From positions 60,084 to 124,083 of the forward strand of contig JAQVUX010000001.1 of NCBI GenBank assembly GCA_028699255.1: DNA of 64,000 bases, written 5' to 3'. A model generated the notes under the pieces. That model was not told where the DNA came from. It saw only the letters and a program-made list of their open reading frames with translations, and did no database searches. The position numbers were made by a program, and so were the translations under genes. This DNA comes from Candidatus Omnitrophota bacterium. Its GTDB lineage: Bacteria > Omnitrophota > Gorgyraeia > 2-01-FULL-45-10. Below, piece by piece: positions 3,435 through 27,025 of this stretch. Positions within the stretch are counted from its first letter, which is position 1. Each line of letters begins with the position of its first letter.

Positions 3435-3857
3435 ATGAAGGATAAAAAGACCGAGGCTGATATAAGGACGATGAGGGACTTTCTCGAGTTCTGGGGCAAG
3501 TTCCATTCCATATATTCCGGCATCCTTGTGAAGGACATCATAACGAAAGAGGACGAGGATAAGTTTTTCGAAACGAAAGGCATGATACGTACCAAGTATG
3601 AGGAGCTGAAGGGCTCTTTGGAATATCGCTACATGCCGCATGGGCGCTTGACCGATCCTGTATGCGATCTTCTGTCGATGCAGACGATACGCTTTATCTC
3701 CGAAGATAACCTGAAGAGACTGAATAATGATTGGAAGGATTCTTACATATTCCTGAATAATATCTTTGAGCGGCTAAAGGCCAGGCGCCGCCGTTTCGAG
3801 GATTTTAACGCGTTGGGTGTTTTTTTTAAAAGGTTCAGGGAACGAAAAACGGTGTAA
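3435..3857 (+). CDS. hypothetical protein, 140 aa, acidic with a basic C-terminus; no recognisable domain
   Basis: An intact ORF lies between dnaE and hup in core-like composition. Its stop codon lies inside the first copy of the 56-bp tandem repeat. Confidence 0.45.
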   Translation: MKDKKTEADIRTMRDFLEFWGKFHSIYSGILVKDIITKEDEDKFFETKGMIRTKYEELKGSLEYRYMPHGRLTDPVCDLLSMQTIRFISEDNLKRLNNDWKDSYIFLNNIFERLKARRRRFEDFNALGVFFKRFRERKTV

Positions 3858-4007
3858 TTAATAGCCCCGCCGGGAGCGAAGATAAGGGCGGGGTGGGTTG
3901 TCAGACGGTGTAATTAATAGCCCCGCCGGGAGTGAAAATAAGGGCGGGGTGGGTTGTCAGACGGTGTAATTAATAGCCCCGCCGGGAGTGAAAATAAGGG
4001 CGGGGCG
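3850..4007. repeat. 56-bp direct tandem repeat, about 2.8 copies (3850-3905, 3906-3961, 3962-4007). Each copy holds an inverted repeat, CCCCGCC-N15-GGCGGGG.
   Basis: Read directly: cggtgtaattaatagccccgccgggagYgaaRataagggcggggtgggttgtcaga occurs three times in succession, with the third copy truncated. It sits between the ORF stop at 3857 and the hup start at 4043. Confidence 0.9.
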
Positions 4008-4042
4008 ATTGCATGAGTTAGATAACATCAATCGGAGGATTT

Positions 4043-4318
4043 ATGACAAAAAAAGACATTGTGATGAAGATAGCCGAAGAGACGGGATTAAAGCAGATAG
4101 ACGTGAAATTGGTAGTGCAGAAGACGCTCGATCATATCACGAATTCCGTTGCCGCGGGCAAGACGGTGGAATTGCGTAATTTTGGCGTGTTCAAAGTTAA
4201 AACGCGCAAGCCCAGGATCGGTAGAAATCCGAAGACCGGAGTTACGGTATCAATACCGGAACGCAAGGTTGTAACGTTTAAATCCGGCATGATAATGAAG
4301 GCGAGAGTTGTAAAATAA
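4043..4318 (+). CDS. hup: DNA-binding protein HU (HU/IHF family nucleoid-associated protein)
   Basis: The 91-aa product contains the HU signature RNFGVFKVKTRKPRIGRNPKTG and a DNA-binding arm. An SD-like GGAGG lies 7 nt upstream of the ATG. Confidence 0.92.
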   Translation: MTKKDIVMKIAEETGLKQIDVKLVVQKTLDHITNSVAAGKTVELRNFGVFKVKTRKPRIGRNPKTGVTVSIPERKVVTFKSGMIMKARVVK

Positions 4319-4320
4319 AA

Positions 4321-5610
4321 ATGGAATATAAACCGGTAAAAGGGACAGCAGATATACTACCACCGCCTGCGGGTAATTCGGAACTTCGCCGGGCCATGGA
4401 GTCGATTTCTCAAAATGTTTTCCAGAAATTCGGCTACCGCGAAATAAGGACGCCGGTGATGGAAGAGAAGTCCTTATTTGTAAAGTCCGTCGGAGAAGAG
4501 ACCGACATAGTTACCAAGGAAATGTTCTCTTTCAAAGACCGCGGTGACAGAGAAATAGTTTTACGCCCGGAAGGTACCGCTCCGATAGTCAGGGCGTACC
4601 TCGCGGCGAATCTTCATAAAACCGATACCTTTCAGAAGTTCTGTTATATAGGCCCGATGTTCAGGGCTGAAAGGCCGCAGGCCGGACGCATGCGGCAGTT
4701 CCATCAGATAGGCGCCGAGGCGATTGGCTCTATGAGTCCGGAAATAGATGCCGAAGTTATCAGATTATTGACCGCGCTTCTCGACGCGATGAGTATAAAA
4801 GGTTATAAGATTAAGATCAATAATTTAGGATGCAAAGAGGATAAAGCGCGCCTTTCGCAAACATTGCGGGGAATCCTTTCGAAAGATAAGAGCGCGCTGT
4901 GCGATGATTGTAAAAAACGCCTCGAGATAAATCCTTTGCGCGTCCTGGACTGCAAAGTCGAATCGTGCCGCGCCTTGGTAAGGGGCGTTTTTAAAGACGT
5001 TGAATTCATATGTCCAAAATGCGGCGAACATTTTAAAAAAGTTTTAGCATGCCTTAAAAGTTTAGGTATAGATTACGAACTGGATCCGTATATAGTGCGG
5101 GGGCTCGATTATTATACGCAGACCGTTTTCGAGGTTACGCATCCCGGTCTGGGAAGCCAGGATGCTTTGGGGGCTGGTGGCCGGTACGACAATCTGATAA
5201 GCGATATGGGCGGTCCCGAGCTCGGCGCGGCAGGGTTTGCGCTCGGAGTGGAGCGTATCCTGATGGTGGCCGGTAAACAGGGCGCGGATATGTCGCTTGG
5301 GCCGGTTGTCCGGGTTGTTTATGTTGCGACTATGGGGCCGGCGGCACAGGCAAAAGGTTTTGAGCTGATCGATTCCTTACGAAGCGGTGAATGGAAAAAC
5401 GTATCATTCAATATCGATTACGAGAACAAATCTCTCAAGGCTCAAATGAGAGAGGCCGATAAGATGAATGCGACGATGGTTTTTATTATAGGAGATGATG
5501 AGTTGACAAAAGGCGGCGCTACTGTAAAATACATGAAAGATAAGAACAAGCCGCAGGAACTTGTGCGGTTTGATGCGGTCGCTCAAAAGATACGGGAGAG
5601 TTTAAACTAA
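4321..5610 (+). CDS. hisS: histidyl-tRNA synthetase (class II aaRS)
   Basis: The 429-aa product has class II motifs (FRPEGT, RMRQFHQIGAE, GGRYDNL) and a C-terminal anticodon-binding domain. It is tightly coupled to the aspS gene that follows. Confidence 0.92.
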   Translation: MEYKPVKGTADILPPPAGNSELRRAMESISQNVFQKFGYREIRTPVMEEKSLFVKSVGEETDIVTKEMFSFKDRGDREIVLRPEGTAPIVRAYLAANLHKTDTFQKFCYIGPMFRAERPQAGRMRQFHQIGAEAIGSMSPEIDAEVIRLLTALLDAMSIKGYKIKINNLGCKEDKARLSQTLRGILSKDKSALCDDCKKRLEINPLRVLDCKVESCRALVRGVFKDVEFICPKCGEHFKKVLACLKSLGIDYELDPYIVRGLDYYTQTVFEVTHPGLGSQDALGAGGRYDNLISDMGGPELGAAGFALGVERILMVAGKQGADMSLGPVVRVVYVATMGPAAQAKGFELIDSLRSGEWKNVSFNIDYENKSLKAQMREADKMNATMVFIIGDDELTKGGATVKYMKDKNKPQELVRFDAVAQKIRESLN

Positions 5611-7376
5611 TGCTTCGCACGCATACCTGTGGTGAACTGAATGATAAGTCGGTCGGTAAAAATGTCGTGCTTTGCGGATGGGTGGCCAACCGCCGCGATC
5701 ACGGCAATATTATTTTTATAGATTTGCGGGACGGTTACGGATTGACACAAATTGTGTTTAATCCACAGGCGACGGTTGAGGTCCACGGGATAGCCGAAGA
5801 GCTCAGGGCCGAATTTGTGGTGAGGATCGAGGGGCCGGTTGCTTTGCGTCCCGCCGGGACCGAGAATCCGAAGCTAAAGACTGGCCTCATCGAGGTTCAC
5901 GCCGAGAAAGTCAGTATACTGAATAAGGCTGACACTCCGCCGTTCGAAATAAACGACAATATATCCGTTACCGAAGAGACGAGGTTGAAATACAGGTACC
6001 TTGATTTGAGGCGAGGTACGATGCAGAAAAGTATGCGACTGCGCCACAAAGTATGCAAGGTCGCGCGGGATTATTTCGACGAAAAGGGTTTTGTGGAAGT
6101 GGAGACGCCGATACTCACCAAATCGACGCCTGAAGGCGCGAGAGACTACCTGGTACCGTCCAGAGTAAATCACGGGATGTTTTACGCGCTTCCGCAGTCT
6201 CCGCAATTATTTAAACAGATATTAATGATATCGTCTTTCGACAGGTATTTTCAGATAGCGAAATGCTTCCGCGATGAAGATCTCAGGGCGGACAGACAGC
6301 CGGAGTTTACGCAATTCGACATCGAAATGTCATTCGTCACCGAGGAGGATATATACGCGCTCTCCGAAGGGCTGATGAAGGATATATTTAAAAAATCTAT
6401 CGGGTATGATCTAAGGGTGCCGTTCCCGAGATTAAAATATTCCGAGGCGATGGCGCGTTACGGATGCGACAAGCCCGATACGCGGTTTGCCCTCGAGTTG
6501 GCCGAAATAAACGGTCTGGTTGCCGACAGCCAGTTTAAAATATTCCAGGATGTCCTAAAAAAGGGCGGACGAATAATCGCCATAAACGCGAAAGGCTGTG
6601 GTGGATATTCACGCGGAGAGATCGACCAGCTGGTGGAGTTTGTAAAGGAGTACGGCGCGAAGGGGCTTGCCAATTTTAAGTGTGAGGGCGATCTTCTTGT
6701 ATCCCCCATAGCCAAATTTTTCACAAAAGAAGAACTCTCTTCGATAAAATCCCGCCTCGCGGCAGTCGACGCCGACATGATCTTTATGGTCGCCGATAAA
6801 GAGAGGGTTGCGTATGAGGCGATGGCCGCATTGCGCAAACATCTCGGTAAGAAGCTTGGCCTGATCGATGAGAAACGGTTCGATTTTCTGTGGATTACCG
6901 ATTTCCCGTTATTTAAATATAACGACGAAGAAAAACGGTGGGAGTCCGAGCACCACCCGTTCACGTCCGTCCATCCCGACGATATCAAGCTTCTTGAGAC
7001 CGGCAAAGACCTGGACAAAGTCCGCTCTAGGTCTTACGACCTTGTGATAAACGGCACCGAGATTGGTTCGGGTAGTATAAGGATACATGAGCGTAAGATG
7101 CAGGAGCTTATATTTAAAACTATAGGTATAAGCGATGAACAGGCGCGTCTGAGGTTTGGCTTTTTGCTCGACGCATTCCGGTACGGCGCGCCTCCGCACG
7201 GCGGCGTTGCCTTCGGGCTCGACCGGCTCATGACCTTCCTGACCGGTTGCGATTCGATACGGGATGTTATCGCGTTTCCTAAAACGCAGAAGGCGTTTTG
7301 CCCGATGACGAGCGCTCCGTCCGATGTCGAGACAAAGCAGTTAGACGAATTGGGAATAAAGATAAAGGCAGAATAA
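5610..7376 (+). CDS. aspS: aspartyl-tRNA synthetase
   Basis: The 588-aa product has an N-terminal OB-fold anticodon-binding domain, the FYALPQSPQLFKQ and QFTQFDIEMSF motifs, and GAPPHGG at the C-terminus. The hisS-aspS pairing is conserved in many genomes. Confidence 0.93.
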   Translation: MLRTHTCGELNDKSVGKNVVLCGWVANRRDHGNIIFIDLRDGYGLTQIVFNPQATVEVHGIAEELRAEFVVRIEGPVALRPAGTENPKLKTGLIEVHAEKVSILNKADTPPFEINDNISVTEETRLKYRYLDLRRGTMQKSMRLRHKVCKVARDYFDEKGFVEVETPILTKSTPEGARDYLVPSRVNHGMFYALPQSPQLFKQILMISSFDRYFQIAKCFRDEDLRADRQPEFTQFDIEMSFVTEEDIYALSEGLMKDIFKKSIGYDLRVPFPRLKYSEAMARYGCDKPDTRFALELAEINGLVADSQFKIFQDVLKKGGRIIAINAKGCGGYSRGEIDQLVEFVKEYGAKGLANFKCEGDLLVSPIAKFFTKEELSSIKSRLAAVDADMIFMVADKERVAYEAMAALRKHLGKKLGLIDEKRFDFLWITDFPLFKYNDEEKRWESEHHPFTSVHPDDIKLLETGKDLDKVRSRSYDLVINGTEIGSGSIRIHERKMQELIFKTIGISDEQARLRFGFLLDAFRYGAPPHGGVAFGLDRLMTFLTGCDSIRDVIAFPKTQKAFCPMTSAPSDVETKQLDELGIKIKAE

Positions 7377-16564: not shown

Positions 16565-16587
16565 CAGGCGTAAAGTTTTATTAAAAA

Positions 16588-16619
16588 AACACCCGCAATT
16601 AAACGCGGGTGTTTTTTTA
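16588..16619. terminator. bidirectional rho-independent terminator (A7 - CACCCGC loop GCGGGTG - T7)
   Basis: A perfect 7-bp GC-rich stem is flanked by an A-run upstream and a T-run downstream. It sits between the fadL-like stop and the 3' end of the minus-strand tRNA. Confidence 0.75.
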
Positions 16620-16696
16620 TGGCGCCCCTGGCCCGAGTTGAACGGGCGACACCAGGTTTAGGAAACCTGTGCTCTATCCATCTGAGCTACAGGGGC
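16620..16696 (-). tRNA. tRNA-Arg (anticodon CCT), 77 nt, with encoded CCA
   Basis: I folded it manually. It has a 7-bp acceptor stem (GCCCCTG/CAGGGGC), a D-arm GCTC-AGATGGATA-GAGC, an anticodon stem CAGGT/ACCTG with loop TTCCTAA, a T-arm GCCCG-TTCAACT-CGGGC, and discriminator G followed by CCA. Confidence 0.85.
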
Positions 16697-16748
16697 ACTG
16701 AATTAAATTGAGCTACTCTATTACTGCACTGGATGCTCGCTACGCTCG

Positions 16749-16771
16749 CTATCCATCTGAGCTACAGGGGC
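16749..16771 (-). repeat. 23-nt direct duplicate of the 5' end (acceptor plus D-arm) of the adjacent tRNA-Arg; a tRNA gene fragment
   Basis: The string ctatccatctgagctacaggggc is present at 16674-16696 (inside the tRNA) and again at 16749-16771. A further mini-fragment, gagctac, lies at about 16713. Confidence 0.8.
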
Positions 16772-19204: not shown

Positions 19205-19220
19205 GTAACACGATAGTAAA

Positions 19221-19256
19221 AAAGCCCCGCTCTTATATAAGAGCGGGGCTTTTTTG
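19221..19256 (+). terminator. rho-independent terminator (AGCCCCGCTCTT-atata-AGAGCGGGGCT followed by T5)
   Basis: A perfect 11-12 bp stem and a T-tract follow immediately after the porin stop codon. Confidence 0.8.
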
Positions 19257-19295
19257 TTGACTTTTTACCGGCGTCAAAATACAATACTACGATAT

Positions 19296-26365: not shown

Positions 26366-27025
26366 ATGGTAAAAATAGCGTCTGTAATATTTGTCGCGGC
26401 GATTTTGATCGTATCGGTATCAGGTTCGGTTTATTCGATGGACGATGATTCATCGCGTGAGTTATTAAAGCAAGGCTTGCTGGGCGCAGGAACGGGGGCT
26501 ATAGCTTCCGGCGCTTCCGGTGGTGATGCCGGTAAGGGCGCTTTGATAGGCGCGGGTACAGGCGCTATAGGCGGCATACTTTTGGACGCTATAACTAAAC
26601 CTTCGTCGTCATCGCGGCGCACCGCCGCGGCCACGCAGGATGAATACTACGATGATCAGCAGGAAGAATATTACGAAGAGCCACAGCAGGAATCAGGTAC
26701 GCAGAAAGCCTTAAAACAGGGCCTGCTTGGCGCGGGCACCGGCGCAATCGCATCGGGTGCGTCGGGTGGTAATGCCGGGCAGGGCGCTTTGATAGGCGCG
26801 GGCACCGGTATAATCGGCGGCATCCTTCTGGACTCTTTGACCCAACCTTCGCAACCTAAAAAGGTATACAAACGTCGTCCACAAGCGGTTACCCAGCAAA
26901 TTCAAACACAGCAGAATGTGAAAGTGGAGGAAGAACAGGCCGGGTCGGAGGGTGGAAAGAAGAAGATCATAAAAAAATATGATCCAACCGGGAAACTGGT
27001 CTCCGAAGAAGAGGTATATTACTAA
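26366..27025 (+). CDS. glycine-zipper membrane/surface protein with two internally duplicated GAGTGAIASGASGG...ALIGAGTG modules
   Basis: A signal/TM segment (VKIASVIFVAAILIVSVSGSV) is followed by two Gly-zipper modules of about 45 aa each, separated by an acidic/Gln linker. An AGGAGG RBS lies 9 nt before the ATG at 26366; the ORF track start is 26321. Confidence 0.6.
   Translation: MVKIASVIFVAAILIVSVSGSVYSMDDDSSRELLKQGLLGAGTGAIASGASGGDAGKGALIGAGTGAIGGILLDAITKPSSSSRRTAAATQDEYYDDQQEEYYEEPQQESGTQKALKQGLLGAGTGAIASGASGGNAGQGALIGAGTGIIGGILLDSLTQPSQPKKVYKRRPQAVTQQIQTQQNVKVEEEQAGSEGGKKKIIKKYDPTGKLVSEEEVYY

Follow-up and report, generated by a model that had tools for sequence, protein, structure and literature searches.

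A tandem hairpin array before hup in an Omnitrophota bacterium is probably a locally amplified cluster of a dispersed REP-like palindromic repeat

The gene hup of a Candidatus Omnitrophota bacterium, encoding a protein of the HU/IHF family, is preceded by three head-to-tail copies of a GC-rich hairpin, which we designate HP1. We analysed this array within a window of 64,000 nt (contig JAQVUX010000001.1 of assembly GCA_028699255.1, positions 60,084 to 124,083 of the forward strand; coordinates below count from the first base of the window, and collected loci from other genomes and metagenomes carry L numbers). With a probability of roughly 0.7, the array is a locally amplified, copy-number-variable cluster of a dispersed palindromic repeat of the Omnitrophota that resembles repetitive extragenic palindromic (REP) elements, and not a control region specific for hup. 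The module carrying HP1 is inserted at the point where an upstream open reading frame (ORF) and hup overlap by ATGA in relatives, tandem reiteration has multiplied HP1 along with host sequence at its flank, the hairpin family is dispersed, and amplification recurs at a second locus. A first, sequence-only reading had offered, as one of its options, a small element akin to REPs or miniature inverted-repeat transposable elements (MITEs) that had grown in tandem, and it is this option that the dispersed family, the copy-number variation and the second array back.

Tandem Repeats Finder delimited a head-to-tail array with a period of 56 at 3849-4005 (2.8 copies, 98% matches, score 300), and a repeat search of the window placed the units at 3849-3904, 3905-3960 and 3961-4016. 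Together with a pattern search, this bears out the tandem 56-bp triplicate with the inverted repeat CCCCGCC-N15-GGCGGGG that had been noticed at the outset, with the third copy being partial. A complete unit consists of 16 nt of flanking sequence, ACGGTGTAATTAATAG, followed by HP1 and by the 11-nt linker TGGGTTGTCAG. In unit 3 the match is limited to the first 45 nt (3961-4005); CGATTGCATGA takes the place of the linker, the unit running on into CGATTGCATGAG... The first nine bases of ACGGTGTAATTAATAG, ACG GTG TAA, are the final codons of the upstream ORF with the stop codon at 3855-3857, so that the ORF ends inside unit 1; the distance from the end of the array to the hup start codon is 37 nt rather than the 36 nt given then. 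Copy 1 deviates at two loop positions, having C3877 where copies 2 and 3 have T and G3881 where they have A; the identity of copies 2 and 3, likewise noticed earlier, holds over the 45 nt of copy 3. The only matches of CCCCGCC-N15-GGCGGGG in the 64 kb are the three at 3865-3893, 3921-3949 and 3977-4005; shuffled sequences predicted 0.02 matches, and none of 100 shuffles reached three. A CRISPR array was ruled out, as the full 56-nt period is repeated and hence no unique spacers exist. Behind the array stands a second hairpin, HP2, with GATTTG(Y)-N15-17-(R)CAAATC as its homologue in the modules of L009, L018, L030 and L038 described below.

Copy number was compared among contigs retrieved from other samples by an upstream ORF that is the same or 99% identical or, in case of L003, by an identical HU protein. 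The flanks of these same-species contigs are 96-100% identical to the window. A single copy is present in L001 (Logan SRR8925730), L004 (JGI 3300037067) and L005 (ENA), two copies are found in L006/L053 (JGI 3300014204), and three in the window, whose source is a metagenome-assembled genome (MAG) built from short reads, so that its copy number is no better than the assembly. The array before hup is a variable number tandem repeat (VNTR) with one to three copies among near-identical strains. L003 starts precisely with the last hairpin, which is where a repeat would be expected to interrupt assembly. A separate observation concerns L005 (1255-1404; ENA ERZ27247350 k141_1765665), where the ORF, HP1, HP2 and GGAGG are followed by a gene with an AsnC/Lrp-type helix-turn-helix domain and not by hup. 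The switch lies exactly at the Shine-Dalgarno sequence, and the AsnC-type gene is not found in the 64-kb window. This junction represents either a chimeric join via a second module copy or a real rearrangement.

Comparison with relatives shows where the module was inserted. ORF and hup overlap by ATGA in L007, L013 and L017 and are separated by spacers of 18 and 4 nt in L016 and L021, respectively; the hairpin module is missing at the junction in five of eight related species, the nearest ones included. When aligned with the relatives carrying the overlap (alignment A2), the extra ~72 nt of the window species, counted as a single copy, fall precisely within the ATGA. The insert has the order ATAG-HP1-HP2-GGAGG-ATTTA, in which GGAGG is the Shine-Dalgarno sequence of hup. 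TTA is present at both insertion edges, leaving the boundaries uncertain by 3 nt, and may represent a short target duplication. No MITE-type terminal inverted repeats besides the hairpin arms were detected at the window insertion. A homologous two-hairpin module occupies the same junction in two further species (L009/L010 and L018-L020). Its stem is TCCCGCC/GGCGGGA in L009 and GGTGC/GCACC within an outer CCC/GGG helix in L018, the loop is conserved in both (NGRAGTRARA...), and their HP2 reads GATTTGC-N15-GCAAATC. In a simple neighbour-joining tree of ORF, HU and HisRS, calculated without support values, the bearers of the module (window species, L009 and L018) are not monophyletic, and L013 and L017, the nearest relatives of the window species, are devoid of the element. 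Such a patchy distribution that follows no clade requires repeated gain or repeated precise loss. As the intergenic space between ORF and hup measures merely 0-18 nt, a tolerated insertion between the two genes can only fall here.

HP1 is not confined to hup. The pattern CCCGCCNGRAGTRARANNNNNGGCGGG, derived from the hairpins of the window and of L009, had 22 matches in 185,579 species genomes (one genome per species), 10 of which lie in MAGs of Omnitrophota, a small phylum. Four MAGs contain two matches each, on different contigs; one MAG with two matches, STD1_81, carries no hairpin at its own ORF-hup junction (L014). The other 12 matches reside in unrelated, mostly GC-rich genomes, several being ordinary long-stem hairpins or terminators with a self-complementary "loop", and are due to chance. 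A scan of metagenomes added further Omnitrophota loci (L045, L046, L050, L051, L053, L055, L061 and L062; phylum assignment checked for L045, L051, L055 and L062), and viral contigs scanned with the family pattern yielded no match. The sequence-only reading had associated a generic REP-like element with dozens of copies in unrelated intergenic contexts: such contexts were indeed found, with several copies per genome rather than dozens. Among ~35 distinct hairpins, the family shows a 7-bp YCCCGCC stem and a loop starting with NGGAGTRARA..., which measures 15 nt in nearly all of them; the collection pattern fixes the stem sequence, and on covariation only L018 is informative. Two loop types recur, type A with NGGAGTRARAYNRGG and type B with CYGAGCWARAC..., and often abut as a head-to-tail pair of 58 nt. 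About two thirds of the distinct copies have (G/A)TAG 0-7 nt 5' of the stem, which in tRNA contexts is the GTAG of the tRNA D-arm. Placement outside genes, mainly past an ORF and between co-directional or convergent genes, holds for the window, L009, L018, L025, L028, L030, L036, L038, L039 and L045. The species of the window has at least two HP1 loci, namely the hup locus and L045, one of which lies in the 64-kb window.

The contexts of these copies are diverse. In MAG fen_1322 the complete module, GGTAGT-HP1-HP2-Shine-Dalgarno, stands behind a stop codon and ahead of the start of an unrelated gene, namely a membrane-protein gene in L030 and a peptidase-like gene in L038; in the latter the HP2 loop holds two more nested hairpins. 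Within the ORF for uracil-DNA glycosylase (UDG; family 4, as assigned by motif recognition), a hairpin pair is present on the opposite strand in L041 (2971-3025 of the reoriented locus), L054 and L059; the ~19 residues that it encodes, PAFDLTSGGIPPERDRRRD, are flanked by conserved motifs of UDG. The arrangement resembles the intragenic palindromic insertions reported for REPs and Rickettsia palindromic elements (RPEs) in repair genes. One Omnitrophota MAG (Ga0265297 contigs L046, L051, L055 and L062; proteins MFA498xxxx) contains at least five copies of a non-coding composite repeat of ~400 nt, comprising A+B hairpin pairs, a perfect palindrome of 32 nt and an internal direct repeat of ~50 nt. 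In L051 (1-530) inverted hairpin pairs surround a core of 350 nt, an arrangement that looks MITE- or REPIN-like.

Seven HP1 loci (L028, L036, L039, L050, L061, L035 and L025) adjoin tRNA genes, six of them genes for tRNA-Arg of three isoacceptors (CCT, CCG, TCT) and one for tRNA-Thr. In these loci the intact gene is preceded by a decayed, partial copy of the tRNA, and HP1 sits within that copy. Some of these copies form "mini-tRNA" units, in which tRNA positions 1-13 are followed by HP1 and by a remnant of the 3' strand of the acceptor stem, while others are clean insertions into the D-loop or T-loop: in L036 and L025 the D-loop sequence picks up directly after the hairpin(s), and in L035 a tRNA 3' end is duplicated and bears an A+B pair exactly in its T-loop. 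ARAGORN did not call the "mini-tRNA" units as tRNAs, and they are treated here as decayed copies and not as genes. The window itself offers a related observation at 16620-16771 on the minus strand, where the 5' end of the gene for tRNA-Arg(CCT) (16620-16696) recurs as an exact copy of 23 nt, GCCCCTGTAGCTCAGATGGATAG, 75 nt upstream (16749-16771). In between lies a D-arm-like fragment, GAGTAGCTCAATT, and no CCCGCC hairpin; in L028 and L036, which match this tRNA-Arg(CCT) locus, the duplicated 5' fragment is followed by HP1.

A second tandem array was detected in L045 (reverse strand, ~1330-1475; JGI Ga0172381_10233527). It has a period of 54 with at least 2.5 copies and runs to the end of the contig. 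Its repeat belongs to the subtype of the window, consisting of HP1 and CGATTGCCTGAGTTAGATA with 94% identity over 52 nt, and the array follows a T-tract terminator downstream of a gene for a peptidoglycan-binding protein. The adjacent protein is identical to MDD3905804.1, whose accession series is shared with MDD3904962-65 of the window; from this numbering we infer that L045 stems from the same MAG or species.

In several respects HP1 corresponds to REP/BIME and GTAG-tagged repeats such as E. coli REP, Pseudomonas REPIN and Stenotrophomonas SMAG. It is a short palindrome, 29 nt long and with a GC-rich stem of 7 bp, that usually lies outside genes, mostly past ORFs between co-directional genes; several dispersed copies exist per genome, and the family is conserved across the phylum. 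(G)TAG is often found at one end, occasional copies reside in repair genes, and G-U pairs in HP1 hint at transcription. In GTAG-tagged palindromic repeats the stems measure 6-9 bp and GTAG forms a tag at the end; these repeats are located between unidirectional ORFs and occur in the Planctomycetes-Verrucomicrobia-Chlamydiae (PVC) superphylum (Di Nocera et al. 2013, PMC3733652); formation of clusters by tandem reiteration of the unit plus flanking DNA has been described for them as well (PMC3733652). The window array, with its period of 56 including 11 nt of ancestral flank, and the L045 array, with its period of 54, likewise reiterate the unit. Features of REP-like repeats were either found in HP1 or gave no verdict, none spoke against membership, and HP1 is best read as a new family of REP-like palindromic repeats. 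A full-text search of a paper library, combining Omnitrophota with "repetitive extragenic palindromic", found nothing.

Several points nevertheless weigh against reading the array as an amplified REP-like repeat. Classical REPs number tens to hundreds per genome and favour inverted pairs. In contrast, head-to-tail A+B pairs predominate among the HP1 copies, and the apparent number per genome, as counted in MAGs, is low, with two strict matches per MAG and at least five in one. The tag is degenerate: it is missing in about one third of the copies (L034, L037, L045 and others) and is ATAG in the window. Also unlike in REPs, the loop is long (15 nt), conserved in sequence and not self-complementary, and there is a strong association with decayed tRNA-Arg gene copies. 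No RAYT gene is linked: tblastn of E. coli TnpA-REP (query sequence checked against PDB 4ER8) against 427 kb of collected sequence, which is far too little for exclusion, gave no credible RAYT-like match, and a weak match in the window runs antisense to a real gene. Since the 11-nt linker TGGGTTGTCAG is absent from the single-copy alleles, the first duplication was not a plain tandem copy of such an allele, and the linker cannot be derived from it by plain duplication. No further copy of the linker was found in the window or in any collected locus; by eye it weakly resembles the tail CGATTGCATGA or GGTTCAG at 3833-3839, neither being convincing as its source. Finally, three species that are not sisters share the module at the ORF-hup junction, and in L018 the stem is changed while the loop is kept. 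This recurrence and the stem/loop pattern of L018 leave room for a selected function at this site.

Such a function could reside in a cis-regulatory leader specific for hup, with HU/IHF sites in the DNA or an HU-bound RNA and with extra copies tuning HU autoregulation; the sequence-only reading had suggested an autoregulatory or IHF/HU-binding array. The assignment of the downstream gene to HU was correct (Table 1), and the position of the array directly upstream of the gene for a nucleoid protein, the three-species recurrence and the L018 stem, which is changed yet paired, would all suit a leader of this kind. We consider it very unlikely, because the module is missing in five of the eight relatives, including the nearest ones in which ORF and hup overlap, because copy number is unstable (1-3) and because a second array exists at a non-hup locus of the same species. 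The same module also precedes unrelated genes, and the same hairpin occurs beside tRNAs and within the UDG gene. Judged by these sequence comparisons, the proposal of an autoregulatory array or a dedicated structured leader does not appear to hold. Folding gave a divided picture: the 206-nt leader folds better than shuffled sequences (z = -4.7), while the 56-nt unit alone reaches -17.8 kcal/mol and is no better than its shuffles (z = -1.65). The Rfam search suggested earlier for the leader returned no family above the gathering threshold at the repeat, the only hits in the window and in 11 related loci being tRNAs, and a permissive scan of 3780-4100 produced only chance-level PK-BYV (best 18.7 bits versus a threshold of 50). 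A function not tied to hup is conceivable too, if HP1, together with HP2, were an intercistronic RNA module used throughout Omnitrophota whose loop is recognised by a hypothetical, dedicated RNA-binding protein or nuclease acting in the processing or stabilisation of polycistronic transcripts and tRNA precursors, the array being a dosage variant. Conservation of loop sequence and length over species and loci is consistent with this, as are the orientation of nearly all copies with flanking transcription, the extension of the stem by G-U pairs on the sense strand only, and the fact that the module starts directly past the stop codon and ends in a Shine-Dalgarno sequence at four different gene pairs. 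Yet the sequence of the stem itself is conserved and not pairing alone, as for recently copied DNA; copies are also inverted, nested, antisense within a coding region or placed in decayed tRNA copies, and presence at orthologous sites is patchy. An RNA module of this kind is therefore unlikely, albeit less so than a leader dedicated to hup.

We give little credence to a terminator or attenuator between ORF and hup that was strengthened by triplication. GC-rich stems, present threefold immediately past a stop codon, are reminiscent of Rho-independent terminators, but the 15-nt loop, the missing T-run and the occurrence of HP1 upstream of tRNAs and genes that need to be transcribed argue otherwise, and the gaps of 0-2 nt between hup, hisS and aspS as well as the coupling of ORF and hup in relatives argue for read-through. 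A promoter/terminator scan called neither a sigma-70-like promoter nor a terminator on the plus strand within the repeat; two weak terminator-like calls on the minus strand affect copy 1 only and occur at the rate of shuffles. The earlier statement that the inverted repeat does not look like an intrinsic terminator is upheld. Canonical T-tract terminators do exist in the window, at 19205-19268, a perfect bidirectional intrinsic terminator (AAAAAAGCCCCGCTCTTAT/ATAAGAGCGGGGCTTTTTT), and after a tRNA gene at ~16575-16615 (minus strand); they serve as internal controls and indicate that the organism uses T-tract terminators. It is scarcely probable that the three copies arose in assembly, by the mis-joining of strain variants of a single hairpin. 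Short-read assemblers do handle tandem repeats poorly, as illustrated by the break in L003, and the two single-nucleotide differences of copy 1 resemble strain-level variation, the C at the first of the two sites being shared by L001. However, the linker junction and a two-copy allele are present in L006/L053, which comes from an independent JGI assembly of another sample, assemblers are more prone to collapse tandem repeats than to expand them, and a second array with a different period exists in L045.

If the array is indeed an amplified cluster of a REP-like repeat, the family may have spread as non-autonomous mobile or recombinogenic DNA. In analogy to REP and RAYT, a candidate mover would be a single-strand HUH/Y1 transposase acting beside GTAG; alternatively, template switching might be involved. 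The array would gain and lose units via replication slippage or unequal recombination. As relatives couple ORF and hup translationally, the repeats are almost certainly contained in the mRNA of the ORF-hup-hisS-aspS operon. There, the hairpins (~-17 kcal/mol each; first stem 7 nt past the stop codon) would replace translational coupling by an independent Shine-Dalgarno sequence. E. coli REPs act as barriers to exonucleases and can disturb terminating ribosomes when located within ~15 nt of the stop codon; such effects were reportedly described by Newbury et al. 1987 and by Liang, Rudd and Deutscher 2015. By the same token, the hairpins may be barriers to processing or decay that shift the ORF:HU ratio, a side-effect varying with copy number rather than a dedicated autoregulation of HU.

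A more speculative idea, which we regard as doubtful, sees HP1 as a loop-seeking mobile hairpin that is possibly derived from tRNA-Arg. It would insert cleanly, as a 29-nt unit or as a 58-nt A+B pair, into the loops of structured nucleic acids, with local target duplication. Putative targets would be loops of other hairpins and, in tRNA, the D-loop behind GTAGCT and the T-loop behind GTTC, and the products would be the "mini-tRNA" units upstream of intact tRNA-Arg genes and arrays like the one before hup. If true, this would amount to a mechanism of mobilisation, or to a conserved RNA-protein recognition system, undescribed for bacterial repeats.

Other known systems share individual features with HP1. 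Correia elements of Neisseria and RPEs are small non-autonomous palindromes that become inserted and co-transcribed, and they can change the processing of the mRNA. They measure 100-150 bp and carry terminal inverted repeats; in-frame insertions of RPEs occur in coding as well as RNA genes. HP1 is likewise found between or inside genes (UDG, tRNA copies), and the window insertion has TA/TTA at both edges. In contrast, its basic unit is a hairpin of 29 nt or a pair of 58 nt, and the likeness is one of description, no sequence similarity being claimed. MIRU-VNTR loci of mycobacterial type are built of dispersed intercistronic units of variable copy number, described as mobile and with start codons as their insertion sites (PMC12548453). 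HP1 shares with them units of 40-100 bp at many loci, location at stop/start junctions of operon genes, direct tandem arrays and strain-variable copy number. However, MIRUs have a small ORF coupled (-4 nt) to the downstream gene, while the HP1 module supplies a Shine-Dalgarno sequence instead, and MIRUs are not defined by a GC-rich hairpin. In the window, the reading frame that terminates at the hup ATGA stays open for no more than 6 codons and contains no start codon, so that no coupled mini-ORF of MIRU style is present and identity with MIRU was ruled out by this feature.

The features of the locus are listed in Table 1. No Pfam domain matched in the upstream 140-aa ORF, which has 256 homologues; all named ones belong to Omnitrophota/Omnitrophica, and the ORF is identical to PHS46_00340 / MDD3904962.1 of an Omnitrophica MAG. 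dnaE lies upstream of it. In every locus fetched this Omnitrophota-specific ORF stands directly upstream of hup, in most cases behind dnaE, and its ATGA overlap with hup in several species suggests a functional link of the ORF protein and HU. In L019 (1-703; ENA ERZ27247916) a gene for an IS4-like transposase (DUF4372 and DDE_Tnp_1) takes the place of dnaE upstream of the ORF, while L018 and L020, otherwise identical to L019, keep dnaE there. Elsewhere in the window, a direct repeat of 141 nt (26465-26605 and 26711-26851; 77% identical, 246 nt apart) is probably internal to a coding region.

Table 1. Coordinates of the array before hup, the inserted module and the flanking genes within the window.
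Feature	Position	Strand	Remarks
Upstream 140-aa ORF	3435..3857	+	conserved hypothetical protein of Omnitrophota; last three codons within unit 1
Repeat unit 1, 56 nt	3849..3904	+	16-nt flank ACGGTGTAATTAATAG, HP1, 11-nt linker; loop variant GGGAGCGAAGATAAG
Extra segment relative to relatives with ATGA overlap	3861..4043	+	183 nt here, ~72 nt as single copy; alignment A2
HP1 copy 1	3865..3893	+	7-bp stem CCCCGCC/GGCGGGG, 15-nt loop; G-U pair 3864-3894 can lengthen the stem on the + strand
Linker TGGGTTGTCAG	3894..3904, again 3950-3960	+	missing from every single-copy allele
Repeat unit 2, 56 nt	3905..3960	+	loop GGGAGTGAAAATAAG
HP1 copy 2	3921..3949	+	
Repeat unit 3, partial, 45 nt	3961..4005	+	without linker; same as first 45 nt of unit 2
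HP1 copy 3	3976..4006	+	8-bp stem GCCCCGCC/GGCGGGGC
HP2 CGATTG-N17-CAATCG	4006..4034	+	outside the tandem array; ends at the Shine-Dalgarno sequence
Shine-Dalgarno GGAGG	4034..4038	+	4 nt before hup ATG; 3' end of the inserted module
hup, 91-aa HU/IHF-family protein	4043..4318	+	PF00216, E 8e-30
hisS	4321-5610		after hup
aspS	5610-7376		after hisS

For this locus, these results mean that the array before hup is not evidence of HU autoregulation. It is a hypervariable site that could serve as a VNTR marker for strains of Omnitrophota, and the array at the hup locus is probably ordinary selfish or neutral DNA with a potential side-effect on expression. At the same time, a family of small palindromic repeats is documented in an uncultivated phylum, and the locus illustrates how such a repeat can break an ancestral, translationally coupled gene pair and bring in a Shine-Dalgarno sequence of its own in place of the coupling. 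The association with decayed copies of tRNA-Arg, together with the clean insertions into loops, provides a handle on the movement of such hairpins, which is poorly understood even for classical REPs.

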